A stretch of DNA of 21,903 nt from a virus, in UHGV virus genome UHGV-0149790; one strand, written 5' to 3'. Made by a program: the position numbers and the translations under genes. Every line of letters begins with the position of its first letter. Positions within the stretch are counted from its first letter, which is position 1. Below are positions 4,104 through 21,903 of the stretch, in pieces. The notes below the pieces were generated by a model, which saw nothing but the letters and a program-made list of their open reading frames with translations, was not told where the DNA came from and did not search any database.

Positions 4104-4168
4104 TCCCTTTCTAATCAGTTAGATGCATTTTTTTACGCCCATTGTGTTCGTTTTCTCTAATTTAATCA

Positions 4169-4197
4169 TTGACCAAATTGTTAGATTTATCTAAATT
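4169..4197 (+). promoter_or_regulatory. pL-like promoter with an embedded operator
   Basis: -35 TTGACC (4169-4174), 17-bp spacer, -10 TAAATT (4192-4197); third operator copy TTAGATTTATCTAA at 4181-4194 lies in the spacer/-10. Confidence 0.5.
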
Positions 4198-4348
4198 ACA
4201 TCACATCAACGACGCACTAACCACGCGGCAGTTGTTCAGAAACAGTTCTGACAGTCCGGAAAGACGGGCGCGAATTCTTCGGGTCGCCGACAGTACGATG
4301 ACATGCGGGAAAGACCGCAACGAATGCGAATTGCTGTGTGTAGTCTTG

Positions 4349-4373
4349 GCCCGGGCGCCCCGGGCATTTTTTT
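4349..4373 (+). terminator. intrinsic terminator about 150 nt downstream of the pL-like promoter
   Basis: Perfect 7-bp GC stem GCCCGGG-cgc-CCCGGGC (4349-4365) followed by a run of seven T (4367-4373). Confidence 0.7.
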
Positions 4374-4454
4374 AAAGCATTCACGCAGTAACGAGGAAAG
4401 ACCAATGGGGCTGACCACCCTGACAGCCGGGAAAGACCGGCAACCTTCAGGCGT

Positions 4455-4476
4455 AAAAAAGCCCACCGAAGTGGGC
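4455..4476 (-). terminator. intrinsic terminator on the minus strand, convergent with the plus-strand terminator
   Basis: GCCCAC-cgaa-GTGGGC hairpin (4461-4476) flanked by AAAAAA at 4455-4460, i.e. a T-run after the stem when read on the minus strand. Confidence 0.5.
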
Positions 4477-4597
4477 TAATTTACCCGGGACAGTGACCAA
4501 ACCGCCCAGAATGCTACAGGGGACCAACCCTGTAGCGAGGAAAGACCAACGACAGAGCCGCTGATCGGCTCTGAGTATATATCATCAAGGAGTCGCT

Positions 4598-4965: not shown

Positions 4966-7164
4966 ATGACCATCTACAACGGCTCATTTGAGCCAAAGAA
5001 ATCGGCGATTAAAGACTGCGGCGCCGTGCAGCTGGCGATCGCCATCGATGCGCCAAACAAAAAAGTGGCCGAAAGCATTATGACCGGCAAACTCTGGGAA
5101 TCATACCCGGCCAATGGTGACAACTATTTCAAACCGAAACTGTGGGAACACGTTGAAGGCCAGCCGCTGCCGACCGTTGGCCAGTTCGATGAGTCATTCG
5201 CCCAGCAGCATACTTTTGACGGTGAAAAATGGGTTTCTACTGCGCAGGATAGCGCTTCCGGAAGTGGTGCAGGTTTACCTGCCGACGATGAAGTGATCGA
5301 CCTGATGACCGTTTCCCCTGATGAACGCTTTGCTGCCGTCCTGCTTTTTAGTACCGCGGCGATTGATGGCCATCTTTATTCTCAGGTTGTGGATTATCTG
5401 GATAATCTGAAAAACCACGATGGGGAATTTGAAGAGGAAGATCGCTTTAACTTTAATGTTCTGTGTGCCCTGCAAAATAACTTCCCGGTTCAAAGCATGC
5501 ATGTGGAAGGTCTGAACAATCTTATTCAGGGTATTTTCTCCCACTTTGAAAACCAGACGCCGGGCAAAGCGGCTATCTCTCAGTTCGTTAAACGCTGGCT
5601 TGAGAATCCGGGCAAGCGCGACGAACTGGCCCCCGGCGTATATAAAAATACCGCTCTCAGCACCAGCACCAGCACCAGCACCAGCACCAGCACCAGCACC
5701 AGCACCAGCACCAGCACCGATGATAAAACACCCGTGGTAATTTCTAAGCGCGGATATAAACACACTTATGCAACGCTGGATCAGGAGATCGCTACCGCCC
5801 TTCTCCCGCTGGCGCCTGATGCGCCGGTACTATCCGGAAACCTTCTGGACGCTAAGAAGATGATTTCCGATGACCGGGAAGATTTTAAACGCTGGTCAGC
5901 ATCGCTGCACACCACGCCGCAGATACTCAAATACGACCGCGCCAGCATCTTCGGCGTGGTACAAAACGTACCGGCGAAAGATACCTACCATTTCCCTGAC
6001 AGCCTGCGCCGCCATATCGATTCATGGCTGGCGGCCAACGGCCGCTTTGAGGAAACCGAGACAGGATCCGTTAAACAACCAGAGGCGACGCAAAATACCG
6101 CCTCAAACGTGGGCGAAAAAGTGGAAGCGCAGCAGCCGGTTGTAACCGACACCCAGGCCAAACAGGCGCGTGAGACGCTCAATGATATGGGTTATGGCGT
6201 ATATGCCTCTGGTGAAGGTGCAGAGCCGGAAGAGAAGTTAAGCGTTAAGGCTGAAAAACTGGCTGATGATTCCGAGCGTTTAGCAAAACAAATCGCTCAC
6301 GCTGAAAGCCTGCCTAACGCTGAGGATGTTGTGCAGGCTGTCGGAAAACCAATCATCGGGGAAGACAATTTAGACCTCTGGAAACGCGTATTTAAAACCG
6401 ACGAAAGGTTTACTAAGGCTTTCACACAGAACGGCGGTGGCACCTCGATCAACGGTACCTACATGACCATGCTTGCCACACGTGAGTTTGGCCCTAAGGG
6501 CATCGGCTGGGGCGTGGATATTGTTGAAGAGCGTTTCGATATTGGCGCGCCGATCACTCGGCAAGTAAAAGGCAAAGACAACAACGCATCGTGGGAGCTG
6601 GTTCTTGATGGGAATGGTAATACCGTCAACGAACAGCACCATGTTGTGACTGTCCGGCTCTGGTACATCCTGAACGGAGTACGAGGTGAGGAAACAGCAT
6701 ACGGCTGTACACCCTACATTTACGGTAGTAAATACGGGATCACCTGCGACGGCGAAGCAGCCAAAAAATCACTGACAGATGCGACCAAAAAAGCGTTATC
6801 CGGCCTCGGATTCAGTGGCGATATCTTTATGGGGCTTTACGACAATCTGGAGTACCGCCAGAAGAACAAGGCCGAGTTTGACCTGAAGAACGCCAGCGAA
6901 TCAGCCGAAGATGCAGCACGGCTCCGCCAGGAGTTTGACGATAAATTAAGCCGCGTTGCTAATACCCTGGCGCATGGCGTGACGGTGAACGAAATCAACG
7001 GTGTGTTTTCCCCTATCGCACGTGAGATCGATGTTCACATTAAAGCCGCCCAGGCCAACGGCGACACGCAGCATGAACGTTATCTGTCTGGCCGGCTCCG
7101 CCGACTCATCTCCATCAAAGATGGGCGCATTAAAGAACTGAATAAAGCCGAGGAGAAAGCATAA
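4966..7164 (+). CDS. large recombination protein: N-terminal region of unknown function, (Ser-Thr)10 linker, C-terminal Rad52-like single-strand annealing domain
   Basis: ATG at 4966 preceded by GAGGAAAGACCA; C-terminal motif GCTPYIYGSKYGITCDGEAAKKSLTDATKKALSGLGFSGDIFMGLYD matches the Rad52/Sak signature (K-x-A-V-T-D-x-x-K-R-A-L-x-x-F-G); 733 aa from this start. Confidence 0.7.
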   Translation: MTIYNGSFEPKKSAIKDCGAVQLAIAIDAPNKKVAESIMTGKLWESYPANGDNYFKPKLWEHVEGQPLPTVGQFDESFAQQHTFDGEKWVSTAQDSASGSGAGLPADDEVIDLMTVSPDERFAAVLLFSTAAIDGHLYSQVVDYLDNLKNHDGEFEEEDRFNFNVLCALQNNFPVQSMHVEGLNNLIQGIFSHFENQTPGKAAISQFVKRWLENPGKRDELAPGVYKNTALSTSTSTSTSTSTSTSTSTSTDDKTPVVISKRGYKHTYATLDQEIATALLPLAPDAPVLSGNLLDAKKMISDDREDFKRWSASLHTTPQILKYDRASIFGVVQNVPAKDTYHFPDSLRRHIDSWLAANGRFEETETGSVKQPEATQNTASNVGEKVEAQQPVVTDTQAKQARETLNDMGYGVYASGEGAEPEEKLSVKAEKLADDSERLAKQIAHAESLPNAEDVVQAVGKPIIGEDNLDLWKRVFKTDERFTKAFTQNGGGTSINGTYMTMLATREFGPKGIGWGVDIVEERFDIGAPITRQVKGKDNNASWELVLDGNGNTVNEQHHVVTVRLWYILNGVRGEETAYGCTPYIYGSKYGITCDGEAAKKSLTDATKKALSGLGFSGDIFMGLYDNLEYRQKNKAEFDLKNASESAEDAARLRQEFDDKLSRVANTLAHGVTVNEINGVFSPIAREIDVHIKAAQANGDTQHERYLSGRLRRLISIKDGRIKELNKAEEKA
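5659..5718. repeat. perfect hexanucleotide tandem repeat (AGCACC)x10 encoding (Ser-Thr)10
   Basis: Ten uninterrupted AGCACC units read directly in the sequence, in frame within the 4966..7164 CDS. Confidence 0.95.
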
Positions 7165-7730
7165 TGACTTCCACCACTGCAATTGCTATCGCAGCCGATA
7201 TGTCAAAACTCCAGGCACTACTGGAAAACGAAGACGGTGCTGGTCTGTCTCCTGAAATGATCGCCGACACAATGGAAGGTCTTGAGTTACAACTCGGCGA
7301 TAAACTGGATGCCGTTTTCGTCCACGTTCGCAATCTGGAAGGCCTGGCAAAAACCTGCGATGAAGAGGCCAAACGCCTTGCCGCCCGCAAAAAATCATTC
7401 GAAGGTAAGATCACGAACCTGAAGAAATATGTTCTCCAGTGTCTACTGGCCGCCGGTCAGGATACGGTTAAAACCGCCAAAAATACCTTTACCGCACGTA
7501 AGGGAGCTATAAACGTCGTGATCGATAATGATGAATTACTGCCGGATGAATTAGTGACAGTTCAGACGTTAGTCACTCCGGACAAGAAAGCCATCAAGGA
7601 AGCGATTGAATCAGCACAGGCAGCGGCGGCCCAGATTACCGCTGACGGCGGAGAGATACCGGAAGAACTGTTAAACCCAGTGCCGGGCGCTCACCTTGAG
7701 ATTGGCGAACGTTCGCTGCAGGTGCGCTGA
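7164..7730 (+). CDS. Gam-like / Gp157-family protein (candidate DNA-end-binding accessory)
   Basis: 188 aa; start overlaps the upstream stop (TAATG); N-terminal coiled-coil plus a C-terminal pattern resembling Mu Gam; family call from recall, moderate confidence. Confidence 0.5.
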   Translation: MTSTTAIAIAADMSKLQALLENEDGAGLSPEMIADTMEGLELQLGDKLDAVFVHVRNLEGLAKTCDEEAKRLAARKKSFEGKITNLKKYVLQCLLAAGQDTVKTAKNTFTARKGAINVVIDNDELLPDELVTVQTLVTPDKKAIKEAIESAQAAAAQITADGGEIPEELLNPVPGAHLEIGERSLQVR

Positions 7731-9548: not shown

Positions 9549-9696
9549 GATTTTAAATTGGTGGTGATTATTCTAAATATCAAATAGATATGAAAAAAAT
9601 CCGAACATACGCTAATAAACTAGCATCATGAAAACAATAAGTTACAGCAATGTTTTAGACTATCTTCTGACGCTTATCATACCTCAAATTCAATAT

Positions 9697-9936
9697 TTAT
9701 TCAGTCGCGCGGTACCACGATTGCCAGCGGTAGATATTCGTACGTAACTCCCGCACACACTCTGCTGACTGTGTATCCGCCAGCAGATCAGCGTCGCTAT
9801 CTGCGCCAGCGTTACTTATCTTGCACGGTCGGTTCATCAAATCCGGGGATGGCGTTGGCCGCGTCGATTGCTCGTTGGCGCAGCTGCACAGCAGCAGGAT
9901 CAAACTGGCACACAGTACGATTCGGGTCATTGACAT
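9697..9936 (-). CDS. Rz1-like o-spanin (outer-membrane lipoprotein), overlapping the Rz gene
   Basis: Signal-like N-terminus MSMTRIVLCASLILLLCSCANE with Cys near the cleavage region, Pro-rich mature part; out-of-frame overlap with Rz and extends past it. Confidence 0.5.
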   Translation of the reverse strand: MSMTRIVLCASLILLLCSCANEQSTRPTPSPDLMNRPCKISNAGADSDADLLADTQSAECVRELRTNIYRWQSWYRATE

Positions 9937-10171
9937 ATTTCACCACATCACGATAAACGGTACGGTAAATCACTTTGGCTTCGGCGTTCGCCGTCGCTGC
10001 TTTCTGCTCACCAGCGGCAACTGCCTTTTCCTGCTTCGGTAGCCTTTGTTTAGCCTGGCTGTTTACTTGCTCTGAATGTGCGTACCAGCCTTTCAGATAC
10101 CCCGCCCAGTAAATCCCGGCGCATACCGCCAGCACGCCACCAACAATCACCAGTTTGGTTTTTCCGTTCAT
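9812..10171 (-). CDS. Rz-like i-spanin
   Basis: N-terminal TM segment (KLVIVGGVLAVCAGIYWAGYL) then a charged, Ala/Gln-rich periplasmic domain; ATG at 10171 overlaps the endolysin stop (ATGA). Confidence 0.7.
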   Translation of the reverse strand: MNGKTKLVIVGGVLAVCAGIYWAGYLKGWYAHSEQVNSQAKQRLPKQEKAVAAGEQKAATANAEAKVIYRTVYRDVVKYVNDPNRTVCQFDPAAVQLRQRAIDAANAIPGFDEPTVQDK

Positions 10172-10704
10172 TCGTACAGCCCCCAGCACGTCAAAGCGCT
10201 TTCCTGATCGCGGCGGTCAACCTGCCCGTAGCAGCCATTCTTCTGGCCTTTGGTCAGTCGGCAATCCCGGCCTCCGTCGAACACCCATCGCCGGATCTCC
10301 GCGCATGCACCTTTACGGTCGCCTGCGTTCAGCTTGCGATAGAACGTTGAGGGGAAGCATTTACCCGGCCCGATGTTGTACGGGCAGAATGAGGCTATGC
10401 CGACCTTCTGCGGCGGCGTCAAAGAAACGAGCACATTCTTTTCTACCCAGGCAAGCGCCTTATCACGCTCAATGGCGTTTACCTTCCTGCACTGTTCCTC
10501 AGTTGCTCTTTGGCCCTTAATGACACGCTTGCCATCTATAACGGTTACTCCGTGGCACAATGACCACACACCGCCGGGGTCAACAACGGCCACCAGCGCG
10601 TTACCTTCTTTTTCGCTGATAAACTGATCGAACAGTATCGGTGCAGATGCACCGGCGGCCAGAAGCGCCAGCATAGCGGCGCTGAACTTAGCTTTGTTGC
10701 TCAT
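10168..10704 (-). CDS. SAR endolysin (T4-type lysozyme fold, phage 21 R-like)
   Basis: Start at 10704 ([25 protein letters not shown] = signal-anchor-release segment); catalytic-region pattern E...D...T and C-terminal [14 protein letters not shown]...ALTCWG resemble recalled R21; overlaps the holin 3' end. Confidence 0.85.
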
Positions 10705-10918
10705 AGTCCTGTGCCTTCCGCCGGTCGTCTTTGATTTTGAAGTACAAATTAGTGAGGTAGGTAAGCAGCCCAAAAACAATACTGGCCAGTACGCCAATAG
10801 CCGCCCACTGGCTGGGGCTTACCTTATCGAGAAGTTGCAGCAGCCAGTAGCTCCCGCTGACAGTGGATGTGATGTACGACGTGCCAGCCGCCACATCCGG
10901 TAAATTCTTCATTCGCAT
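10688..10918 (-). CDS. pinholin (class II holin, phage 21 S-like) with dual-start motif
   Basis: 76 aa; ...[43 protein letters not shown] matches recalled S21; starts Met-Arg-Met, the classic antiholin/holin dual start. Confidence 0.85.
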
Positions 10919-10975
10919 GCCTTACCCCCATGGGGATCACTATGTGGAGTGATGCGAGGGTAAGGCGAAGCTAAG

Positions 10976-10989
10976 GTCAGAATCCTGAC
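10976..10989. repeat. 14-bp palindrome GTCAGAATCCTGAC (copy 1 of 2)
   Basis: Perfect inverted repeat 57 nt upstream of the holin start on the minus strand, at the edge of an AT-rich island. Confidence 0.6.
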
Positions 10990-11000
10990 TAAATGAAATT

Positions 11001-11270
11001 CTATATTTGGAGTTTTCTTTTAAGTGATTCCTCTGCCTCTTCAAGAGGGCTTCCTGACCCAGAATACACAAAAGAATGGGTAAGCTCCCCACAGGAAAGA
11101 CAACCATCAATGCTAACTTTAAATGAAACAGTCGCTGTTCCATTATTTAGCGATATTAACGATACAGCCTGGTATTCAACTTCAATCGATGTATCTTCTG
11201 ATGGCATCCATACACCTAGCGTTGGATATGCTATAGATTTTCCTATGGTCTGCGTCACTCTGAAAGTCAT
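11001..11270 (-). CDS. hypothetical protein in an AT-rich island between tailspike and holin
   Basis: ATG at 11270 with GAGG 5 nt upstream, overlapping the tailspike stop; 89 aa, beta-rich; a plus-strand ORF (10993..11283) covers the same DNA, so strand is uncertain. Confidence 0.35.
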   Translation of the reverse strand: MTFRVTQTIGKSIAYPTLGVWMPSEDTSIEVEYQAVSLISLNNGTATVSFKVSIDGCLSCGELTHSFVYSGSGSPLEEAEESLKRKLQI

Positions 11271-11277
11271 ATTAGCC

Positions 11278-13797
11278 TCATGAATTAAAAGGAACAACAT
11301 AATCAAAAGTACACTGGAGAGTAAAATCAAAAGTACCAGCTGCTTGAGAATATATTTCTTGGGCTGACGATTTTATAATCGTCATTTGATTTGTCCCTGC
11401 AGGAACAAGCGGCATAACAAAAACTCCTGTAGCCGTGCTTAGAATTATGCTTCCTTTAGACCCACCCTCCTGTATTGAGGCGGCTGTAAAAGGAAGACCA
11501 CTAATGACTATGGCTCCCGCAGTACTAACCAGTAAAGAGGTTGATCTGACTCTTATATCGCAACGAACAACATCACCAAACCTACGGTAAATTCCAGTAA
11601 TGGATGATGGCGTTACGCTTGCCCCGCCAATTGTAATAGTTGGTGTGAATGAGCCATAAAGATACTTAAACTGAGCAGCATTACCACCGGGAAAAGCTAT
11701 TGGCGGCATATAGGCATCATTTCGATTAAAAACATACTTATCGGATAAATTTGTTCCGTTTAACTCCTGAAGACCGAAAAGACGATAGTTTGAATTATCT
11801 CCAAGCTTTCTTTGAGCAACTATATTCTCACCGGCACCGATTCTTGTGCCGTTAAATTCATTAACTGGGGCAGCCTGAACCGCGCCACCTTTTACAATAT
11901 CAAGGGCGAAAATATTTCCTCTTGTTGCCATCGCTGGAAATGTTGAAAGAGATGGTTCGTAGGGATCAACATTATTAACATTAAATCTATTTCCAGCAAC
12001 ATCACCAAGGCCATACTTGATGATTCCTACCCTTTCCAGTATAAGAGTCCTTATTTTACTGTTACCAACATATGATTTAAATCCGTCAACGAATTGAGCA
12101 GAGTGGTAGAATGGCGTTCTTGGAGACCACAGCACTTTAGCCTCACCAATATTGCAATGCAATATCTCCCTTCCCGGAAGTGAAATAATAGTTCTTGCGC
12201 GCCCAGCTATACCTCTATAGGTATCAACTGGGTAAACCCCATTCTGCTGATTATTTGACAACCGACCACCGCTGGCCGTAGGCAAGCAGTTTGCAGACTT
12301 GAAAACATACGTATCAAACCAAGTGTCAAGAGCGGCATATGCTGGATGTGTCCAGTCCATGCCGGTATCACCATAATAATGAAACTTGTCTACATGGTAC
12401 GAATCATTCCATCCCGCCCGATGAATATCTGATGCCGGGTACGGCGGAAGGTACTGAGACGCGTATGCATGATTTCTCGTTAGCCAGCGCCCGCCAAAAA
12501 CAGGGCCTGTAATATTATACCAATATAATGTCAGCCCAGTTTGCGCCAGAGAATCAGATCCTTGATAACAAGCAGGAATGGCACACCCTGAGTACATCAT
12601 ATTATTTTCTACACAGCGGTTTACAGTCCCGTCTACCCATTGCCCAATAAAGAATCCGCTAATCCTGAAATCAGAAAGGTGATACTTTATGTATTGATCT
12701 GGTCCGCTGTCACCTGCGATGTATAGACCCATGGAAGATGTATGATCCCATGGTCCCGCAGTTTTTGAAAAATTACCAATAATCCCACAATTGTGTTGGT
12801 TTTCACCAACAATCATTGAATCATCATAAACACGCAGTGCTGCTTTTGCCTTAACTGGTATTTCAGGAGCAATATTTGAATCACCGTTCCCTATCCACCC
12901 TGGGTATACAGTCCCATCGTCGAATGGCAAATTAAACTCTATCGGTGAAGATATGCACGGATACATTTTAGTTAAATATACCGGAAGGTTATTAGCTTTT
13001 CCGTAATCTATAGCTGCCTGTAGAAATTTAGTTGCATCAGCAGTGATGCCGTGAATATATCTTTCACCATTAATCCTTATCATTTCAGGGGTTACGTATT
13101 TTATTGCATCTTCAACGGTGCCTCCAGTAAGAACCCCTATATGCCCGCTACCTGTCGGTTTGGCATACTCAATCATTACATCTGCTGCACTTCCACTCGA
13201 AGGCAATACCATCAATGGATTGCCATTATTATCCATTGCAACGATTTTATTTTTTCGTTCTGCAATGGAAGGTAACGGTGTGATGCTAGACTCCGGAACG
13301 CGTAGAGTACGAGCTAGATTAATTTTTCCATTTTCAATTACAAATTTTTTAGTAGCTGCATCCTGATCGTTAACTGGATCGGCCAGATTTGCTATCCGGT
13401 AGCCGTTAGCGTTGAAAGGTCCACCGCCGAACAGCGGGCGACTTAGGGCCACTCCGAGATAAATAAACGCGCGCTGAGTAGCCATCCAGAGACGGTCAAA
13501 ATCTTTGTTAACTGTATCGGCCAGCAGGTCGCCGTTGTCCTGGTAATCAGTGAGCCTGTAAGTCGGCGTTACACGTTCAAAAATGACTGTAGCGCCATTG
13601 GCCGGCGCGGTCAGAAAAGTAACTTCGCCACCGCCAGTATTACCCACACCAGACACTGTATAGCCGGACGTTACTTCGTTGCCGTTGATTGTGACCTGAA
13701 TATCGCTGGCGCTGATCAGGTAAAACTCATAGGCAAAGACAGTCGTCAGCCCGTTGGCGGTATAGATGTTATAGGGTGTCTGGTTCGGTACCGACAT
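11278..13797 (-). CDS. tailspike / tail fibre with T7 gp17-like N-terminal adaptor domain and probable beta-helix depolymerase body
   Basis: 839 aa; N-terminal approx. 150 aa (...NANGYRIANLADPVNDQDAATKKFV) parallel recalled T7 gp17 (...RGRRIVNLANAVDDRDAVPFGQL); Gly/Asn/Ser/Thr-rich repetitive body typical of polysaccharide depolymerases. Confidence 0.8.
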   Translation of the reverse strand: MSVPNQTPYNIYTANGLTTVFAYEFYLISASDIQVTINGNEVTSGYTVSGVGNTGGGEVTFLTAPANGATVIFERVTPTYRLTDYQDNGDLLADTVNKDFDRLWMATQRAFIYLGVALSRPLFGGGPFNANGYRIANLADPVNDQDAATKKFVIENGKINLARTLRVPESSITPLPSIAERKNKIVAMDNNGNPLMVLPSSGSAADVMIEYAKPTGSGHIGVLTGGTVEDAIKYVTPEMIRINGERYIHGITADATKFLQAAIDYGKANNLPVYLTKMYPCISSPIEFNLPFDDGTVYPGWIGNGDSNIAPEIPVKAKAALRVYDDSMIVGENQHNCGIIGNFSKTAGPWDHTSSMGLYIAGDSGPDQYIKYHLSDFRISGFFIGQWVDGTVNRCVENNMMYSGCAIPACYQGSDSLAQTGLTLYWYNITGPVFGGRWLTRNHAYASQYLPPYPASDIHRAGWNDSYHVDKFHYYGDTGMDWTHPAYAALDTWFDTYVFKSANCLPTASGGRLSNNQQNGVYPVDTYRGIAGRARTIISLPGREILHCNIGEAKVLWSPRTPFYHSAQFVDGFKSYVGNSKIRTLILERVGIIKYGLGDVAGNRFNVNNVDPYEPSLSTFPAMATRGNIFALDIVKGGAVQAAPVNEFNGTRIGAGENIVAQRKLGDNSNYRLFGLQELNGTNLSDKYVFNRNDAYMPPIAFPGGNAAQFKYLYGSFTPTITIGGASVTPSSITGIYRRFGDVVRCDIRVRSTSLLVSTAGAIVISGLPFTAASIQEGGSKGSIILSTATGVFVMPLVPAGTNQMTIIKSSAQEIYSQAAGTFDFTLQCTFDYVVPFNS

Positions 13798-13814
13798 ACG
13801 AGGAACTCCGGCGG

Positions 13815-15425
13815 CTAGTAATCTACGGCGACCATGTGATCGCCATCATTTGGTTGCCAATGTTCCCGCGCCTGTGCGGTCGGAATCCCGACCAATTTAC
13901 CAATGCGCACTGGTGTTGAGCTGATTGCGCCAGAGCCAGAGTCGATAAAGTCATCTGGCTGATTAGTCAGCGCCGGGTTAAAGTCGCGCATCTGGTCATA
14001 CATTGGGCCGTCGAGCACGTCGGTATGCGCCCAGAGGAAGCGCGACGACAGCGGCGCTTCGAATGCATCGAGGATGCGCTTTTGTTTATTGGTCACGCTG
14101 AATTCTTCCCGTACGCCGCAGCCGGTACCCTTTAGTGCCTGAATCAGCAATTTCCCGGCAAAGCTGCCCGGGCCGTTCACCTCGACGCAGACCAGCGGGA
14201 TCTGGTATTTAAGCACCAGCTCTTTAATCTGCATCACCTGACCGCCGGTGATTTTGTCGTTGTCGTCGAATTCCGCCAGTTCGCCCGTAAGCCCCTGGCA
14301 AACATGCCAGTACAGATGCCCGCGTGCGTCGGTGAAAATCAGAGAGAACGCCGAGGCGTCGGCCTTAACTTTGCCGGTGGCCACATCCCACCAGGCAACA
14401 GCACCAACAATTTGCGTCTGGCCAAGCCACATCGAGCAGGAGCGGTTCGCGTACCGGATTTCAGGCTGTACGTTGTATTCGCGTATGCGGTCGGGATCGA
14501 GACGAACCTCGCCAACCGGTTTACTGTGCAGCTGGTACTGGCTGTCCCATTCGTTAATTGTGCGAGTCTCGCGACGGCGCTTTGTCATTTCCTCCGGAGT
14601 GAACCTTTCTGGCCATTCACAATCGGCGTAACAGTCAACCGTGGTGCCGGGAGCCTCGGCAAACTCGATACCGTCATCGTTAAGACGATAATCAACACCT
14701 TCAACGAGCAGTCGCGCGCCAATGTGAATACCGACGAAAACATATTCCGGCCGGAACGGTAACGAGTAACGGCTCGCGGTGGCCTGTTTTTCCTCGATTC
14801 TAAATTCTTTACCGAATAGTTTGATGGTCAGACAGTCGGCGCCCATAGATTCAACCTCATCGTAAAGGCTATCGTGGGTATGCGGCGTGCCGATAAACAG
14901 CTTTCGCCCGCCGGGGACAAGAATGTGTGTCTGTTCACCGAGACGATAACGCAGCTTTTCCCGCGCCTCTGGCGTCTGGATATTGCGGGGTACTTCTACG
15001 TCATCGTTCTGGCATTCATCAGCGCGGGCCGAGGTAACGTTAGAGAGGATCCCCTTTGCGTACATGCTGCCGTTACGCATATCCAGAGAGCCGTTAACCC
15101 ACCACTGTTCAACGGTTCCCTGTCCGTCCGGTAGCATGCCTTTGGTCAGTGGGTGATTGCGTAAAACGTTCTGCGTATCGCGGCTGGTTTTGTACGCGGT
15201 GCCGTCAGCTTCAGACTGGTGAAGAATGCGGTACTGGCGGTTCTGGTAATATCGCCATGCGTTATACACCGCCAGAATGGTAGATTTACCAAAGCCACGA
15301 AAACAGCGAAGCACCGCGAGATCCCCGCGGTGTTCCAACCAGTGGCAGGCTCGATAATGGCAGTCGGGAACCTCCCACCCCATCCGCTCCGCCCATATGA
15401 TGAAAAAGGCGACGAATGAAATCAT
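13815..15425 (-). CDS. terminase large subunit, T7 gp19 type
   Basis: 536 aa; CFRGFGKSTI (cf. T7 AFRGIGKSFI) and TSARADECQNDDVEVPRNIQTPEAREKL (cf. T7 [27 protein letters not shown]); start overlaps the upstream stop (ATGA). Confidence 0.9.
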   Translation of the reverse strand: MISFVAFFIIWAERMGWEVPDCHYRACHWLEHRGDLAVLRCFRGFGKSTILAVYNAWRYYQNRQYRILHQSEADGTAYKTSRDTQNVLRNHPLTKGMLPDGQGTVEQWWVNGSLDMRNGSMYAKGILSNVTSARADECQNDDVEVPRNIQTPEAREKLRYRLGEQTHILVPGGRKLFIGTPHTHDSLYDEVESMGADCLTIKLFGKEFRIEEKQATASRYSLPFRPEYVFVGIHIGARLLVEGVDYRLNDDGIEFAEAPGTTVDCYADCEWPERFTPEEMTKRRRETRTINEWDSQYQLHSKPVGEVRLDPDRIREYNVQPEIRYANRSCSMWLGQTQIVGAVAWWDVATGKVKADASAFSLIFTDARGHLYWHVCQGLTGELAEFDDNDKITGGQVMQIKELVLKYQIPLVCVEVNGPGSFAGKLLIQALKGTGCGVREEFSVTNKQKRILDAFEAPLSSRFLWAHTDVLDGPMYDQMRDFNPALTNQPDDFIDSGSGAISSTPVRIGKLVGIPTAQAREHWQPNDGDHMVAVDY

Positions 15426-15763
15426 TTTTTCCGCTGTTGTATGCGTTCGATAACTTCCTGTGCTGCCCGTTCAGCCGCAGATACCTGTTGCCCCAGGCGG
15501 AATGCTTCATCGTCCGGATCCTCGCCGGGTTTAGGCGTCCCCCCGCGCGTATGCATGCCAATCAGCGAATGGACTTTTACCAGCAGCGTCAGCGATGCGG
15601 CCGCGTTCTTCTTATGCCAGTACCGATCACCGCGTTCCTGTTTAGTGTGCTTTGTGATTTCCTTCCCTGCCCCCGGCCAGTTGTCCGGATCGGCTTCTTC
15701 CAGAACTACATCGGTGAGCTTATCGCTAAGAGCAGTAAGGCGAGTTTTGTAATCTGAATGCAT
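15422..15763 (-). CDS. putative terminase small subunit (positional inference)
   Basis: 113-aa ORF translationally coupled to the large terminase gene; no sequence signature recognised. Confidence 0.4.
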   Translation of the reverse strand: MHSDYKTRLTALSDKLTDVVLEEADPDNWPGAGKEITKHTKQERGDRYWHKKNAAASLTLLVKVHSLIGMHTRGGTPKPGEDPDDEAFRLGQQVSAAERAAQEVIERIQQRKK

Positions 15764-15811
15764 AAAAAAGCCCCGTGGTTATCCATAGAGCTATGATGTA
15801 TTCTTTTTGAG

Positions 15812-15825
15812 GTCGGAATCCTGAC
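15812..15825. repeat. 14-bp near-palindrome GTCGGAATCCTGAC (copy 2 of 2)
   Basis: One mismatch to the 10976-10989 copy, with shared flanks GGTC.GAATCCTGACTA; 48 nt upstream of the small-terminase start on the minus strand and 20 nt upstream of the plus-strand moron ORF. Confidence 0.6.
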
Positions 15826-15845
15826 TATCACAAGGAGTAAATAGA

Positions 15846-16364
15846 ATGAAGATATTAATTCCATTGTTGCTAATCTTTCACTTTGCAGCATTCGCATCAA
15901 CCGATTTAGTTGATGACTCTAAATATATCGTTCCTATATCCGGACCAGGAATACAGATTACCAATCCATATACCGACTATACGGTCATTAACGGTATCGA
16001 CACTGGTAAAAAAATTGAGATCCATGTATCGGTATTACACTTGCGAACCTATAAAGAAAACGCAGATTTTAGTGAAACTAATACTCACTATGTGGAAGGA
16101 AGTAAAACCATATCTAGTTACAATGCCAATGTTTACACAGACGATTTTATAAAATTTACATCAGAAGACGCTAAAAATTCAACATTGAAAAATTTAAGGG
16201 ATTTGTATTGTGCACCAGATGGATTTTACCCAGTGTCATCTCAAGAGCGGCTATTCTACGAAACCCGAAAAGAAAATAAAAAAATAATGATCAATTACTA
16301 CAGTGATTCAGGGAAAACCCTCATGTTTGGGTTTGGGGTTTCCCCCGAATCATGTAAGTCGTAA
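15846..16364 (+). CDS. secreted or periplasmic protein of unknown function encoded by an AT-rich moron, opposite in orientation to the late operon
   Basis: 172 aa; AAGGAG RBS 9 nt upstream; signal peptide MKILIPLLLIFHFAAFAS; markedly AT-rich, wedged between two minus-strand late genes. Confidence 0.7.
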   Translation: MKILIPLLLIFHFAAFASTDLVDDSKYIVPISGPGIQITNPYTDYTVINGIDTGKKIEIHVSVLHLRTYKENADFSETNTHYVEGSKTISSYNANVYTDDFIKFTSEDAKNSTLKNLRDLYCAPDGFYPVSSQERLFYETRKENKKIMINYYSDSGKTLMFGFGVSPESCKS

Positions 16365-16367
16365 TAG

Positions 16368-19262
16368 CTATCGCATTCCCGGATCAACCTGATTAAGCAG
16401 TGGGGCAATCCAGAACAGGTTATTACCCGGCAGTAACGTACGCACACTATGCAAAACACGATCGCCGGCATCGCCGTTAAGCACGCCGGCGGTCACATCA
16501 GTAACGGTATCCAGCAGGCCGAAGGTTGGCCCTAGCGCAGAACCGATAAAGCCACGGCTGGCGTAACGGGACTGCGTACCGGTACCGAGCAATGGCCCGA
16601 GCCCTATCATCCCACCGGATGCCTTTTCCGCCATGTTGTTGTATTCCATCAGCGGGCCGAGAATACCAGAGCGGTCGATGCCCTCGATTACCATTTTCTG
16701 CGGAGTCAAATCAACCTCCCGGCCGTTGGCCGCCTGCTTAAGCGCATAGGTCAGTGAACCAAGGCCAATCTGGAAGGCGGTACCGTAATAGAACTGCGCG
16801 GTACCTTCCTGCAGGCCGCCGAGCGTCGCGCGGTTATAGGATGCCGTAGCAAAAGACTTAAACTGGAATACGGTTTTTCCCAACGGGGTGCTGGCCCACA
16901 ACGGCGTGTCACCGATACCCGGCGTGATAACGGTATTGTTTACATCCTTGAGCACAGCAGATTGCAGAAGTCCAGCGGCGTACTGGTCATCCCATTTTTC
17001 GAAATTGCCGATATGCCAGCCCTGAATAACTTCACCGTGCCTCTGAAATTCTCGCTGGATGCGTTCGGCCATATTCTCGTTGATGCCGAGTTTTGCCAGG
17101 CGCTTCGCAGGGAACGCGCCGGACAGAATACCGTCGGACGTGATCATGCCATTCACCGATTTGTTCATATCGTCAAAGTGGCCCATCATGGTCAACTTGC
17201 CGAACACATCAGTAATACGTTCCATGCCAGCTTCTGCAGCTGTCGTACGAGAAGAGCTATCGACCAGATCCCCCATAGTACGCGCGCGGGTATGCAGTAT
17301 GGTTTCCAGCCCAACGGCCATTTTCTTCTGCTCCGCCCGGCTGGCGAGATAAGCCGGAGAGCGGGTGATCAGTGCGCCATATCCACGCATGGTATTGCTG
17401 AAGCCGTTAACCATCATGCCGCGCGCCAGATCCGGGATAGCGGATACCGTCATGCCGCCGAGTTTCGTTACAAAGTTGGCGCTACGCAGGAAAGCACCAG
17501 CGCGAACGAAAAATGATGATGGGTCATCCGGCATACCGTAGGTACCGACGAGGCGATCGCGAAGCGCCAGAATATCGCGCAGGTCGGCTTCGCGCGCCTT
17601 CGCCAGCTTTTCCTGTTCTGCTGGGCGTAAACGCATCAGCGCGTCGTATTCGTCCTGGATGGCGGCGAGCTGCGAATCCAGCGACTTGTTGCCGAACGTA
17701 CGGGTTAATTCGATCTCCGCTGAGGCTTCGCGGATATGACGCTGCAGGACGTAATTTGCATCACTCTCCAGATAATCTTTCATCAGGCGATCGGGGACGC
17801 TCAACGTTCGCGATTTGGTGCTACCTGGTGCTTTCACCATGAAGACGTTGGCGAACTCCTGCGGAATTTTGGCCCCGACGATACGGTTAATCGTGGTATC
17901 GGCGGCGATTTCGGCATCTTCGCGGGACATGGTTTTTTCACCACGTGACCACCAGTCAACCAGCATATTGCGGAATTTATCGCGCTCGCTAACAATTTTC
18001 CCTACCTTGTACACGCGAGGGAAATAGCTGGTCTGCCCCATCGCTTTCAGTTCGGCATCCGGCGGAAGCAAACCCAGCTCCTGCTGTGCCGTCTTCACGC
18101 GGTTAATGACTGTGCGCATTGCCTGCGCTGCTTCCTGCACTTTCGCATTAACGTGCACGTCGCCGTTACGCAGCGCCTCGCCGACCTGTTCACGGAAAGC
18201 CGTATGACCCAGATCGCCGCCTTCAGCTTTATACTGAGTGTATGCCTGCTTATTCGCAGTAACGACGGCCGCCTCTTCGCGGCGCCAACCACGTACGCGC
18301 GTCTCGGCAGCTACCGGAGTTTCGATACCGCGCAGGTTTCCTTCCAGCGTGAAGTTATTCTCCGCTAGCTCCAGCGCTGTCCGGCGCGCTTCTTTTGACG
18401 GGGATTCCATCAGTCGGGTGATCGGCGTGAGATAGCTACCGGCTTTTTTAGCCAGCTTGCCAAGCGGGCCGCCAGACACCGGCGTGAGGTCTTCCAGTGT
18501 AGCTTCGCGAATACGCATGGCGCCGACGCTGCCACCGTTCGGTAAAGTATCCGCCAGGGCGTCTGCTGCGTTGTTAATCGTTGGCGAGACGTTCATATTA
18601 TCGAGCGCCTCTGCCACTTCACGCGTGGCCGCGTTTCTTACCGCTGGAGTGATCATCGCGCCAGCAGTGGCGAATACACCGCTTAGAAGTGCGCCGGCTG
18701 TGATGTGTGCTGCGCTCTCCCTGGCGGTTCTGGTGTACTGCTCGTTATTGAGCGCTACCTCGCTAAGTGCGGTACCGGCGGCGCCAATAGCAACCTGAGA
18801 ACCAATACGCGCAGCCAGGCTTCCCTGCGCACCGGGAATAAACATTGATGCTACTGTGATAGGGTCAAGCATGCCAGACGCAATATTCGCTAAAGTTCCG
18901 CCCCATCCTGCCTCAGCAGTAACGCGCCTATCTTCATTTTCTTCATCAATCTGGTTTTTAATCCAGGCGGTTTCCTCTGGGGATTTTGAATCAGCGAAGG
19001 CAGATCCCCATTGTTCGTACCCCTTTAGTTCGTTTTTATCAGAATAAGGGTTATACCCCTCCGCTGTCTCGAACTGTTTAGCCGGGCGGAACACTCCGGC
19101 CAGCAGGTTATTCTGACGAAAAGCGGCATCCCATACAGACGGTTGCTGTTGCAGCGGCTCCGGGTTAGTTCCTTCAGGCAGAGAGACATCAAAACCAGTT
19201 GGCGCCTGAAGAGCATTATCCATTACGCTCGGTGGAACATCAGATTGCGGATAGATCGGCAT
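16368..19262 (-). CDS. large virion structural protein (internal core / ejection-protein-like)
   Basis: 964 aa, Gly/Ala-rich, coupled to the upstream virion protein gene (1-nt overlap); located where T7/SP6-like phages encode internal virion proteins; no specific motif recognised. Confidence 0.55.
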   Translation of the reverse strand: MPIYPQSDVPPSVMDNALQAPTGFDVSLPEGTNPEPLQQQPSVWDAAFRQNNLLAGVFRPAKQFETAEGYNPYSDKNELKGYEQWGSAFADSKSPEETAWIKNQIDEENEDRRVTAEAGWGGTLANIASGMLDPITVASMFIPGAQGSLAARIGSQVAIGAAGTALSEVALNNEQYTRTARESAAHITAGALLSGVFATAGAMITPAVRNAATREVAEALDNMNVSPTINNAADALADTLPNGGSVGAMRIREATLEDLTPVSGGPLGKLAKKAGSYLTPITRLMESPSKEARRTALELAENNFTLEGNLRGIETPVAAETRVRGWRREEAAVVTANKQAYTQYKAEGGDLGHTAFREQVGEALRNGDVHVNAKVQEAAQAMRTVINRVKTAQQELGLLPPDAELKAMGQTSYFPRVYKVGKIVSERDKFRNMLVDWWSRGEKTMSREDAEIAADTTINRIVGAKIPQEFANVFMVKAPGSTKSRTLSVPDRLMKDYLESDANYVLQRHIREASAEIELTRTFGNKSLDSQLAAIQDEYDALMRLRPAEQEKLAKAREADLRDILALRDRLVGTYGMPDDPSSFFVRAGAFLRSANFVTKLGGMTVSAIPDLARGMMVNGFSNTMRGYGALITRSPAYLASRAEQKKMAVGLETILHTRARTMGDLVDSSSRTTAAEAGMERITDVFGKLTMMGHFDDMNKSVNGMITSDGILSGAFPAKRLAKLGINENMAERIQREFQRHGEVIQGWHIGNFEKWDDQYAAGLLQSAVLKDVNNTVITPGIGDTPLWASTPLGKTVFQFKSFATASYNRATLGGLQEGTAQFYYGTAFQIGLGSLTYALKQAANGREVDLTPQKMVIEGIDRSGILGPLMEYNNMAEKASGGMIGLGPLLGTGTQSRYASRGFIGSALGPTFGLLDTVTDVTAGVLNGDAGDRVLHSVRTLLPGNNLFWIAPLLNQVDPGMR

Positions 19263-21859
19263 TATTCATTGCTCCATGAAAAGTAGTTTTTAACCCGGTT
19301 CATACGGTCATCGTGCAAACGCTGATATTGCTCATCGAGCGCTCGGTGTTTTTCCTTAAAGCCTCGAATATCTTTCCCGCGTGATAATTCCTCTTCGCCT
19401 TGCTGTTCCCGCTCCTGCTGCATTTTTTTATACGGTTCCCAGTCTTCCAGCGACGGTTTCCAGCGCATCGGACGCCTGAATTTATCGTAATATGGCTGTA
19501 CGCTCTCGTTACCATCTTTATCTTTCATGCGAACCATAATGGCGTAGTCACCGTTACGCGTGGTTAAAACGTCAGGGGTAATTTCCAGTTCACCACCGAT
19601 TTGGGATTCAGGTGTATTTGATGTAATAACGGGCGCTGAACCTGATGTAATACCCAGTTGGGTCGGGCTGGTTTCAAATTTTTCTCCACGTTCGCCATAG
19701 GTCAGACGCTCTTTCTCTTCTTTCCACTGCGCAGCCTGCCAACCAGAAGGCCCGTAGTTATAAAGTGCTTCAGGCGCGTATTTCATAAACTGGGCGCTGC
19801 CGTTCACATCGCTAAGACTCCAGGTACGCGCGATCTGGGTATTGGTCATCTTTTTGGCAACATCGGCATTACCACCCGAGTTGCGATAATTGATGTCATA
19901 AAGCGACTGGTAGTCGTTACGGAAATTGACGGCGTTAAGATTCTGGTCATCTGCTGCAGGACCGCCAAAGCTGTACCACGGTTTCATGCTACTGACTGCG
20001 GAATCCATCGCGCTGGCACGCTCTTTTTTGTATTCCTTCGTGCTCTGCGTAGAAGACAATTGTGATTTAAGGGCATCAGTCTGGTTATAGGTAACGTTCT
20101 GCGCCTGCTTCACTGCTTCGTCTGACGCCATGCCGGAATCGGTAAGTTGTTTAACGGTCAGGTAAAAGCTTTGCATGTCCTTTGGCATATCGCCCACAGA
20201 GGCAGGATCTGTTTCGTACAGCGCGTTAAATAATGTCGAGCCCTGCTTAACCACGCCGGGGCTGCTGGAACGGGCGATCGCATTCAGTTGCGATGTAACT
20301 TGCGATGGGATAATGCCGGTCTGGTTAACCTGCTGCACGATGGCGTCGTGAGTGGTGGCGTCGTTAATGCGGAAGTTAAGCGCCGATGGCGTATTGTCCG
20401 CCGCCCTCTGCATAGATTTATTGCTCGGGTCGAGTTTCTCGCCGGAGAGCAGCGCATCGTTAAAGCGGGCGGAGTCGCGCTGCGCCTGAATATTGGCGTT
20501 GCTCTTCTGCACCAGCGCGCTAAGTTTGCCGTGTGCATCAAGTTTTAGCGCAAAATCGGGATCGTTTGCCTGCGGCTTCACCTTCGCCAGTTCGGCCTGC
20601 TGTTCTGCCGGGGTGGCGTACTGAATAGCCTGGAAGGTTCTGGCGTTATCAATCGCGATATCCAGCTGCTTGACCGCTGTTTGCCCCTGCTCACCATACG
20701 CAAACAAAATGGTGGAGGCGTTCGGCATAGCATCCGGCACCTCGCCGTTATACAGCTGCGCCATTGTATTATTGAGAATCGGGTCAATCTGCTGGCGCAG
20801 CGCCGTACGCTGCTGCCGGATCTGCGCTTCGGCGATATTGTCGATTTTGTTTACTGCTACCGGGTCGAGACCGGTTTTATTTTTGTTGTAACGGGACAAC
20901 CAACCGCGCGTTTCTGCGGGCAGCTGCTTAACGAAATCCGCCATCGAGATTTCGCCTTTGCGCGGGTCGCCCACTTTGGCGATCAGTTTATCGACGTTAC
21001 CCATCCCCCAGTTATACGCGGCCCCGGCCAGTGGTTCTGACTGGTATTTTTTACTGAGCTGCCCGGCATAATCACGCGCCAGCTGCGCATGCTGCACAGG
21101 ATCGTCCGGGTTGTATTCCACGCCACGTTTAGCCGCCAGTTCTTTCCCTGTGTCCGGCATCAACTGAAATTCACCCTGCGCGCCAGCGGGCGATGTAACA
21201 AGACTACCATCCGCATTGCGGTGCTTACCACCGGACTCCACCAGGCCAACGGCGCGCATATCGAGTTCGCCGGTGCTGCTGTTAATCAACGTAAAATCGC
21301 CATTCAGCCAGCCAGTGGGATTGGTTACCGCGTAGTTCTGCGCGCGCTGCTCCAGCGCTTTTTGGTTCGCTTCTGATACCGCCGCGTCGATGCGCTCCTG
21401 CGGCCAGCCACGCGCCTGGCCATACATCTCGATCGAGTGTTTACGGGCGCTACGTATCAGCCCTGCCTGCATCGGATTATCGTATGCGCTGGCCTCTTGT
21501 TCGACGGAAGTGGTCACCGTCGCATTAAGCTGCTGCCGCTGGGCCTCATCCGTCTGTGCACGCTCGAAACCGCTGTAGGTACTTGTCCGGCGTACCTGCC
21601 CTGCTTTCCACTGCGCATCAAAATAGTTTAACTGGTTGGGCGGTACGCGCTTCCGCGCTTCCTCGTAATCGCCAGCGTCGGCCTTATCCATATCGGTTAC
21701 CACACCGGACGATTTAAAGCCCTGACGAGTGACCGTGGCGCCCGTCTCCGGGTTTTCCCAGCGGTCATTAGATTTAGCTTCCAGATCAGTCAGAATCGCC
21801 TGCGTGGCTGCCACATCGGCTTTATCCTGCTCATGCTGTACTTGTTCTGGATCATGCAC
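19262..21859 (-). CDS. internal virion protein with lytic transglycosylase (SLT) domain
   Basis: 865 aa; SLT signature ESGGKHRNADG...GAQGEFQLMPDTG...AYNWGMGNV about 200-300 aa from the N-terminus; probable GTG start at 21859, two codons after an in-frame TGA. Confidence 0.75.
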   Translation of the reverse strand: MHDPEQVQHEQDKADVAATQAILTDLEAKSNDRWENPETGATVTRQGFKSSGVVTDMDKADAGDYEEARKRVPPNQLNYFDAQWKAGQVRRTSTYSGFERAQTDEAQRQQLNATVTTSVEQEASAYDNPMQAGLIRSARKHSIEMYGQARGWPQERIDAAVSEANQKALEQRAQNYAVTNPTGWLNGDFTLINSSTGELDMRAVGLVESGGKHRNADGSLVTSPAGAQGEFQLMPDTGKELAAKRGVEYNPDDPVQHAQLARDYAGQLSKKYQSEPLAGAAYNWGMGNVDKLIAKVGDPRKGEISMADFVKQLPAETRGWLSRYNKNKTGLDPVAVNKIDNIAEAQIRQQRTALRQQIDPILNNTMAQLYNGEVPDAMPNASTILFAYGEQGQTAVKQLDIAIDNARTFQAIQYATPAEQQAELAKVKPQANDPDFALKLDAHGKLSALVQKSNANIQAQRDSARFNDALLSGEKLDPSNKSMQRAADNTPSALNFRINDATTHDAIVQQVNQTGIIPSQVTSQLNAIARSSSPGVVKQGSTLFNALYETDPASVGDMPKDMQSFYLTVKQLTDSGMASDEAVKQAQNVTYNQTDALKSQLSSTQSTKEYKKERASAMDSAVSSMKPWYSFGGPAADDQNLNAVNFRNDYQSLYDINYRNSGGNADVAKKMTNTQIARTWSLSDVNGSAQFMKYAPEALYNYGPSGWQAAQWKEEKERLTYGERGEKFETSPTQLGITSGSAPVITSNTPESQIGGELEITPDVLTTRNGDYAIMVRMKDKDGNESVQPYYDKFRRPMRWKPSLEDWEPYKKMQQEREQQGEEELSRGKDIRGFKEKHRALDEQYQRLHDDRMNRVKNYFSWSNE

Positions 21860-21903
21860 TCTTCAATTAGCTTGTGCGCGTCGTTACGCTGAGTCTGCTC
21901 AAT

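Follow-up and report, generated by a model that had tools for sequence, protein, structure and literature searches.

In-frame coding microsatellites, or variable-number tandem repeats (VNTRs), of bacteria and phages mutate by slipped-strand mispairing and are used for typing by multiple-locus VNTR analysis (MLVA). A related class is formed by the phase-variable contingency loci, in which surface genes of Haemophilus and Neisseria, for example, are switched on and off by tetranucleotide or homopolymer repeats through frameshifts or altered promoter spacing. Repetition is also familiar at the protein level from flexible linkers, such as the Ala-Pro segments of 2-oxo-acid dehydrogenase E2 chains and the Ser/Thr-rich segments of cellulases. 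Here we describe a hexanucleotide array from the UHGV virus genome UHGV-0149790, of which one strand of 21,903 nucleotides was analyzed in the 5' to 3' direction (this whole stretch is hereafter referred to as the window). The array is located within a gene (4966..7164, + strand) encoding a 732-residue protein that combines a RecE-N-like (YdfE_N) region with a predicted Rad52-like single-strand annealing domain, and we think it very likely that the array is a near-neutral, frame-preserving VNTR in a linker that tolerates changes in length.

Like the coding VNTRs, the tract consists of perfect head-to-tail short units with a unit length that is a multiple of three, it encodes a low-complexity protein segment, and its copy number differs between near-identical genomes. 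With the contingency loci it shares the character of a hypermutable simple repeat within a gene, together with the reversible gain and loss of units. However, its unit is 6 nucleotides long, about 700 nucleotides of the open reading frame (ORF) precede it, and none of the observed alleles shifts the frame. Phase variation in the sense of an on/off switch can accordingly be ruled out at this site, as the frame is kept in every observed allele. The resemblance to the E2 and cellulase linkers lies in a predicted disordered tether of dipeptide repeats between folded modules, but unlike these linkers, the array has units that are identical down to the nucleotide and varies between close relatives, which indicates that mutational turnover is still going on and that the linker is not fixed. 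Literature searches on the repeat sequence, YdfE/Rad52, and phage hexanucleotide repeats found no earlier description of this locus, and to our knowledge 10 to 15 perfect hexamer units are long for an enterobacterial genome.

Results

The tract occupies positions 5659..5718 of the + strand, where both direct reading and a script check identified a perfect (AGCACC)x10 hexanucleotide microsatellite with zero interruptions. Tandem Repeats Finder reports the array at 5658-5718 with a period of 6, 10.2 copies, 100% matches, and a score of 122, which makes it by far the strongest tandem array of the 21.9-kb window. The 12-mer AGCACCAGCACC occurs nine times in the window, every time inside the tract, compared to an expectation of 0.01 occurrences derived from 100 dinucleotide-preserving shuffles. 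The array is in frame with the + strand ORF running from GTG 4933 or ATG 4966 to position 7164, and its AGC-ACC units are read as (Ser-Thr)10, corresponding to residues 232-251 if counted from the ATG (as is done throughout this text) or 243-262 if counted from the GTG. The list of ORFs for this DNA places the start at GTG 4933, which is 11 codons 5' of the ATG 4966 used by all annotated relatives (MTIYNG...), and it is the latter that gives a protein of 732 residues. Three ORFs in other frames also extend over the tract (5275-5763 on the - strand, 5546-5740 on the + strand, and 5580-5765 on the - strand), none of which is a credible gene because their dipeptide runs are generated by the AGCACC repeat itself. 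A hairpin-forming DNA structure was likewise rejected, as the centroid structure was unpaired and the minimum free energy lay at -3 to -4 kcal/mol. Since a stable hairpin is predicted on neither strand of the tract, a special DNA structure need not be invoked.

The copy number of the array was compared among close relatives by using the upstream flank TATAAAAATACCGCTCTC to scan contigs of viral, metagenome, and genome origin, supplemented by single-protein look-ups, which yielded 31 sequences sharing the flank, with the window included. Two further returns of the flank-pattern scan were set aside as chance matches, namely L034, which was the sole return from the genome contigs, and L031 from a metagenome. 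A megablast search with the gene found 2 phage records, 1 plasmid record, and 5 records of the E. coli collection, too few for a census. The modal allele has 2 units (17/31), followed by the 4-unit allele in five sequences, whereas 7 and 8 units were each found twice, and the alleles of 5, 6, 9, 10, and 15 units each occur in a single sequence, the 10-unit allele being that of the window. All 31 alleles are multiples of 6 nucleotides and in frame, and their ORFs stay open. Their units are AGC-ACC hexamers or differ from these by a single base, except in one 4-unit allele (L001), which departs further with the degenerate units AGCGCC, AATACC, AGCGCC, and AGCACC. Within the pure arrays, each unit has identical codons and synonymous variation is zero, which is indicative of ongoing turnover rather than of an old array kept at the protein level only. 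Moreover, the point-mutated units are themselves repeated, as would be expected if whole units get copied: the 9-unit allele (L005) contains GGCACC five times and one of the 8-unit alleles (L006) contains AGCTCC three times.

Several of these differences separate sequences that are otherwise almost indistinguishable. The nearest relative of the window, L028, exhibits only 14 substitutions over 5325 aligned bases (99.7% identity), and the tract is the sole insertion or deletion in the aligned 5.3 kb, with 2 units versus the 10 units of the window. Similarly, L210 and L212 have just 2 differences in 1200 flanking bases, yet they carry 14 and 5 pure units, respectively. When 1153 bp of flank were compared, the closest relative of nearly every expanded allele was found to be a 2-unit allele, from which we can conclude that several independent expansions have occurred. 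A corresponding distribution was evident among proteins with the flanks ELAPGVYKNTAL and DDKTPVVISKRGYKH on either side of the tract, in which the intervening sequence is (ST)2 in 24 cases, (ST)4 in 2, (ST)5 in 10, SANTSAST in 2, and STSTSTGTSTGTGTGTGT and STSSSSSSSTSTSTST in 1 each. The same spread of unit numbers was found among the proteins of a 15-billion-sequence collection, which does not contain the exact protein of the window. A previous sequence-only reading of this DNA had described ten uninterrupted AGCACC hexamers, had proposed that they constitute a hotspot of length mutation with preservation of the frame, and had suggested a comparison of repeat number across relatives. The ten hexamers are exact by direct reading, script, and Tandem Repeats Finder, while relatives have anywhere between 2 and 15 units at precisely this position, including the near-identical pairs, such that the number is variable rather than invariant and the frame is retained throughout. 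Its further statement that only the length of a Ser-Thr linker changes is apt for what is indeed a predicted disordered segment.

To place the tract within the protein, we used a full-length AlphaFold model built from a 31-sequence alignment (mean predicted local distance difference test [pLDDT] score of 75.8), in which all of the following modules are encoded on the + strand. The protein is predicted to begin with an alpha/beta module of residues 1-92 (4966..5241; pLDDT about 82-91), followed by a helical module of residues 110-221 (5293..5628; helices at 118-221, pLDDT about 82-90) that directly precedes the tract and falls inside the region matching the N-terminal part of RecE (positions 56-381 of the profile PRK09709). 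The tract itself is contained in a predicted disordered segment, linker 1, of residues 225-260 (5638..5745; pLDDT <50), which is flanked by helical modules with a pLDDT of about 80-90 and is the most length- and sequence-variable part of the family alignment. Directly 3' of the tract is another helical module of residues 262-360 (5749..6045; helices at 268-358). Next comes linker 2, a long and largely disordered segment of residues 365-464 (6058..6357) with pLDDT <50 at 365-395, 409-434, and 441-464, which is heavily gapped in the family alignment and precedes the predicted Rad52-fold annealing domain with its long helical tail (residues 470-731; 6373..7158; AlphaFold and Foldseek). Homology to other phage proteins is modular as well. 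The Pectobacterium phage ZF40 has only residues 1-145 and the C-terminal domain in common with the window protein, while the RecE-type exodeoxyribonuclease VIII proteins of Klebsiella and Citrobacter phages have only residues 264-355 in common with it, indicating that the latter residues form a separable module with a boundary at the tract. According to the model, the tract is thus situated within a disordered stretch that links two folded modules, both belonging to the RecE-N-like N-terminal region. This placement does not agree with the earlier proposal that the Ser-Thr linker joins the two halves of the protein, as the tract sits at residues 232-251 of 732 and both flanking modules are N-terminal; nor does the tract serve as the linker to the annealing domain, which is preceded by the separate disordered linker of ~100 residues at 365-464. 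The notion that the tract marks a domain junction is upheld insofar as modular homology breaks there, only not at the midpoint of the protein, whereas a recent formation of this junction is unlikely because the same junction with its tract is present in homologues of only 43-62% identity.

The breadth of the array across the protein family was assessed with an unbiased sample of 80 viral loci, which were retrieved by protein similarity while ignoring the repeat. In 16/80 homologues, a hexamer was repeated perfectly in tandem 3 or more times, and in 15 of the 16 it was AGCACC at the same junction, with 3, 3, 6, 6, 7, 7, 7, 8, 8, 8, 10, 11, 13, 15, and 15 units. Within a lineage of 57-62% identity that has other flanks, EEMLPQN-(ST)n-EDN, almost each member differs in length. 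An AGCACC tract is also found at the same position in homologues of 62% (L035) and 43% identity (L037), and likewise in L064, L085, and L093. The repeat-free lineages contain unrelated Ser/Thr/Asn/Gly-rich sequence at this site that ends in AGC-ACT/ACC-GAT (Ser-Thr-Asp), and it is plausible from the comparison of these sequences that this ending is the common seed of the tract.

Other repeats were encountered in the second linker of the family. L230 (IMGVR_UViG_2836662228_000002), a 47%-identical homologue, has (GAGCAG)17 encoding (Glu-Gln)17 at about residue 380, in linker 2 rather than linker 1. In the 34%-identical homologue L146 (4750-4803), the same hexamer as in the window is read as GCA-CCA, or Ala-Pro, for 9 units in the linker just before the Rad52 domain. 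Ala-Pro is likewise encoded in the central linker of RecE-type proteins of 1064-1091 residues at L086 9093-9134 (7 units) and L150 9841-9870 (5 units), and thus these two loci also differ in unit number; overall, the range is (Ala-Pro)5-10. It should be noted that the Ala-Pro cases are a biased set, as they were found via a search for the AGCACC motif itself, and that (AGCACC)5 is present at at least 120 loci in viral contigs, most of them unrelated, so that the motif alone is not diagnostic. There were also two homologues in viral contigs, L211 and L236, in which translation from the matched start yields only 34 and 181 residues, respectively. This suggests frameshifts or premature stops located 5' of the tract and unrelated to the repeat, and these two genes may be pseudogenes or reflect sequencing errors.

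Over its N-terminal ~370 residues, the protein resembles RecE/exodeoxyribonuclease VIII of Rac-like and Gifsy-like prophages. Residues ~10-378 exhibit 27-30% identity to phage RecE/exodeoxyribonuclease VIII proteins over the N-terminal part of the latter, which is non-catalytic, and tblastn aligned residues 10-366 with the RecE-type proteins of phages Evi, mEp460, and PPompW (expectation value [E] about 1e-16 to 1e-17) and residues 154-355 with those of Gifsy-1/2 and SPN3UB (E about 3e-8). The NCBIfam RecE profile PRK09709 was matched at positions 56-381 of 877 (E 8e-13) with a score of 47 bits, compared to a cut-off of 1269. Relatives are assigned to the Pfam family PF27430 (YdfE_N) in precomputed annotation and, like YdfE of the E. 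coli Qin prophage, carry YdfE_N together with YdfE_C (PF27432). The C-terminal 5'-3' double-stranded DNA exonuclease domain of RecE was not matched, and no nuclease family was detected in the 732-residue protein. Unlike in RecE, a Rad52-like domain is predicted to stand where the nuclease domain would be.

Whole-protein searches of Pfam, NCBIfam, and PDB sequences returned nothing useful for the C-terminal domain, and a 51-sequence profile of this domain found no match among PDB sequences. Among those 51 homologues, 16 match the Pfam family Rad52_Rad22 (PF04098) with a best E of 4.5e-5, while the window protein is unmatched up to E 1. Because sequence and profile searches had failed for this domain, a fold comparison was needed. 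The AlphaFold model of the C-terminal 264 residues, derived from the 51-sequence alignment, has a mean pLDDT of 96.5, and Foldseek ranked human RAD52 (8bjm and 1h2i) on top with E 2e-6 to 6e-6 and a probability of 1.00. These two entries were the sole PDB matches at E <1e-3, with target-normalised template modelling (TM) scores of about 0.46-0.52. Viral structures matching the domain are named Rad52/59/22, RAD52-like recombinase, or ERF, and phage relatives carry the annotation 'RAD52-like annealing protein'. A search of a 1.84-billion-protein library with the C-terminal 264 residues detected ~2400 homologues at E up to 0.001, many of which are stand-alone proteins of 240-290 residues, the size of typical phage annealing proteins. 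The window protein therefore shares with the Rad52-like phage annealing proteins (the Sak family, PF04098, and human RAD52's N-terminal domain) its predicted C-terminal fold as well as a conserved K-K-S-L-T-D-A-x-K-K-A-L-S-x-L-G-F motif region. It differs from the stand-alone members in its N-terminal extension of roughly 465 residues with two predicted disordered linkers and in falling below the Pfam thresholds. As judged from the model, the C-terminal domain has the Rad52 annealing-protein fold and a putative single-strand annealing activity, and the name of annealing-protein gene that was given to this locus from its sequence is, on the strength of the modelled fold, the human RAD52 matches, and the annotation of relatives, the right one, even though many databases refer to an exonuclease.

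The 732-residue protein matches PHROG 2489 ('exonuclease') end to end, and in PHROGs and at NCBI the family is variously listed as 'exonuclease', 'exonuclease family protein', 'phage-associated endonuclease', and 'putative exodeoxyribonuclease VIII'. Across the product of window 4966-7164 and the relatives P0001-P0120, these nuclease-type names appear to have been inherited only from sequence similarity to the non-catalytic N-terminus of RecE.

The gene is part of a temperate phage's early-left region, which contains, on the - strand, a DnaB-type helicase gene and a gene matching RepO of relatives. The region also includes genes for a cI-like repressor, a 107-residue ORF, the 732-residue protein, a member of the Siphovirus Gp157 family, and a tyrosine integrase. 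The Gp157-family gene (7164..7730, + strand; Pfam PF05565, E 8e-35) has a start codon that overlaps the stop codon of the 732-residue gene by one base, and this adjacency is kept in all relatives. Between the cI-like repressor gene and the 107-residue ORF there are about 490 bp (4104-4597) with no convincing ORF. Most annotated relatives share this gap, one of them having a 114-nucleotide coding sequence within it, and regulatory sites or a small RNA might be located there. Homology to the integrated prophages L028, L013, and L004 stops at window position 9558, 3' of the integrase gene, which makes the surroundings of about 9558 the probable phage attachment (attP) region. In the window, no tRNA or host gene was found after the integrase; the phage late genes follow directly, including those for a lysozyme (10168-10797), a protein with a T7-type tail-fibre N-domain (11278-13797), a terminase (13815-15425), and an SLT-domain protein (19262-21859). 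As the prophage homology ends at 9558 and only phage late genes are found beyond it, an integrated-prophage context was ruled out and the window represents a phage or its circular form. The late region (9600-21903) has no close relative in a 50,697-record phage collection, in which only a 234-nucleotide endolysin match was detected.

Some database records of relatives deserve separate mention. L001 corresponds to positions 82321-96516 of NZ_CP129873.1, a record of 727 kb from Klebsiella pneumoniae that bears the label of a plasmid but in which the prophage is integrated beside pgsA, uvrC, and uvrY. These three are normally chromosomal genes, and what was deposited may be a piece of chromosome or a replicon assigned to the wrong class. 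L002 is OM816834.1 (Stenotrophomonas phage vB_SmeS_BUCT708); this phage and that of OM816835.1 have ~80% nucleotide identity to the Klebsiella/E. coli prophage gene and the whole early-left gene order in common, including an integrase that in relatives targets the enterobacterial pgsA-side tRNA region. The Stenotrophomonas host recorded for them looks surprising.

Discussion

In our assessment, the AGCACC array is very probably a coding VNTR that changes in length by slippage within a length-tolerant linker, at little or no cost to the phage. At the DNA level, each lineage that was compared has AGC-ACC/ACT-GAT at this site, and the array probably grew from this short Ser-Thr seed. Enterobacteria prefer AGC as the codon for Ser and ACC as that for Thr, and so a Ser-Thr seed readily becomes an AGCACC hexamer. 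Most likely, the nascent and template strands re-pair out of register within the array during replication, while unequal annealing between misaligned copies would provide an alternative route. Each such event would gain or lose one Ser-Thr dipeptide and, with a unit of 6 nucleotides, would leave the reading frame intact. The resulting changes in length would be tolerated because the array sits in a predicted intrinsically disordered linker between folded modules. The pLDDT of <50 at residues 225-260 between confidently modelled modules and the unrelated sequence found there in repeat-free lineages both speak for such tolerance. The locus would then drift fast, with a common and relatively stable 2-unit state and unstable longer arrays of 3 to 15 units, and the 10-unit allele of the window would be a recent expansion. 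We infer slippage as the mechanism, as well as its rate and the near-neutrality of its products.

Three observations fit less comfortably with near-neutral slippage. The near-identical pairs differ by 8 and 9 units, and to arrive at such differences takes a long series of single steps or else events of several units each. Lineages of 43-62% protein identity retain the pure motif at one and the same junction, which could hint at selection for the tract or the motif, and the reuse of the same DNA hexamer as Ala-Pro in another linker of relatives could hint at selection too, with the reservation that these cases stem from the biased motif search.

Selection on length is the premise of the alternative that survives best, which the previous sequence-only reading had raised as a tunable linker length. 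The microsatellite would be kept as an adaptive, evolvable tether, since fast and reversible length changes would tune the positioning of the N-terminal modules relative to each other and thereby how the protein interacts with a partner, with a host factor, or with a sensor of host defence, making it a graded, frame-preserving analogue of a contingency locus. It would account for the recurrence or persistence of the tract at one junction across several diverged lineages, for the 3-15 units present in almost every member of one lineage, and for the hexamer repeats in other disordered linkers of the family, such as (Ala-Pro)5-10 and (Glu-Gln)17. However, the minimal 2-unit allele is modal in the lineage of the window, whole lineages are without the repeat, and the allele lengths have no preferred value. 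Persistence would also follow from a Ser-Thr seed in preferred codons under mutation pressure alone, and we therefore regard an adaptive tether as unlikely. A wider form of this idea holds that the array is maintained, either because mutable linker microsatellites, (Ser-Thr)n in linker 1 and (Ala-Pro)n or (Glu-Gln)n in linker 2, re-tune the tether length or because the Chi-like octamer GCTGGTGC modulates RecBCD. We rate this as quite improbable. If it were so, quick re-tuning of the tether could serve, for example, to adjust to a range of host partners or to evade sensors by which the host detects phage recombination proteins.

Selection might also act upon poly(Ser-Thr) as such, for instance as a target of phosphorylation or glycosylation or as a binding motif. 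Such a role for the peptide would agree with the Ser/Thr-rich composition that is kept at this site even in repeat-free lineages, but the identical codons in all units, with no synonymous differences between them, point to copying at the DNA level. Furthermore, Gly-Thr and Ser-Ser variants are tolerated and have themselves been expanded, and lengths from 2 to 15 units occur, all of which makes a selected peptide motif very unlikely.

The remaining alternatives fare worse still. On the minus strand, the tract reads (GGTGCT)10 and contains nine overlapping GCTGGTGC octamers (5660-5715), each of which matches the recombination hotspot Chi, GCTGGTGG, at 7/8 positions, and it might hence be Chi-like and attenuate RecBCD on phage DNA. 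The 21.9-kb window has one true Chi only, at 10590 on the - strand, and the same hexamer is found in another reading frame in relatives. An 11-mer related to Chi, chi* (GCTGGTGCTCG), has a weak activating effect on wild-type RecBCD and gives lambda red gam larger plaques, and each 3' base of its CTCG is reported to be required to activate the RecBC1004D mutant enzyme (PMC5041463). In the tract, the minus-strand octamer is followed by TGG to give GCTGGTGCTGG, which differs from chi* in the required 3' bases; neither GCTGGTGG nor GCTGGTGCTCG is present, and the tract was rejected as a Chi or chi* site. In addition, most alleles have only 2 units, and the cases in another frame came from the motif search, whose (AGCACC)5 matches in viral contigs are mostly unrelated loci. 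A DNA-level signal is therefore extremely improbable. Lastly, low-complexity repeats are prone to mis-assembly, but an assembly or sequencing artefact is scarcely credible for a tract of only 60 nucleotides with varied lengths in many independent assemblies, including the multi-megabase chromosome records CP166703.1 and CP045913.1, and with length variants in isolate genomes, metagenomes, and viral contigs alike.

As an in-frame coding microsatellite in a predicted disordered interdomain linker, the tract is a known kind of feature and its practical value is modest. It nonetheless supplies a length marker of high discriminating power within a widespread family of temperate phages and prophages of Klebsiella and other enterobacteria, and it is at the same time a likely source of spurious 'indel' calls and assembly disagreements. 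It also points to a place where insertions into this large recombination protein are tolerated, a help in tagging or domain dissection. That a family widely named 'exonuclease' is predicted to have an annealing domain of the Rad52 type, with no nuclease domain detectable, is relevant to annotation and to the mining of new recombineering proteins. Should the length of the linker prove to be selected after all, the locus would be an example of a phage microsatellite that tunes a protein in a graded rather than an on/off manner.

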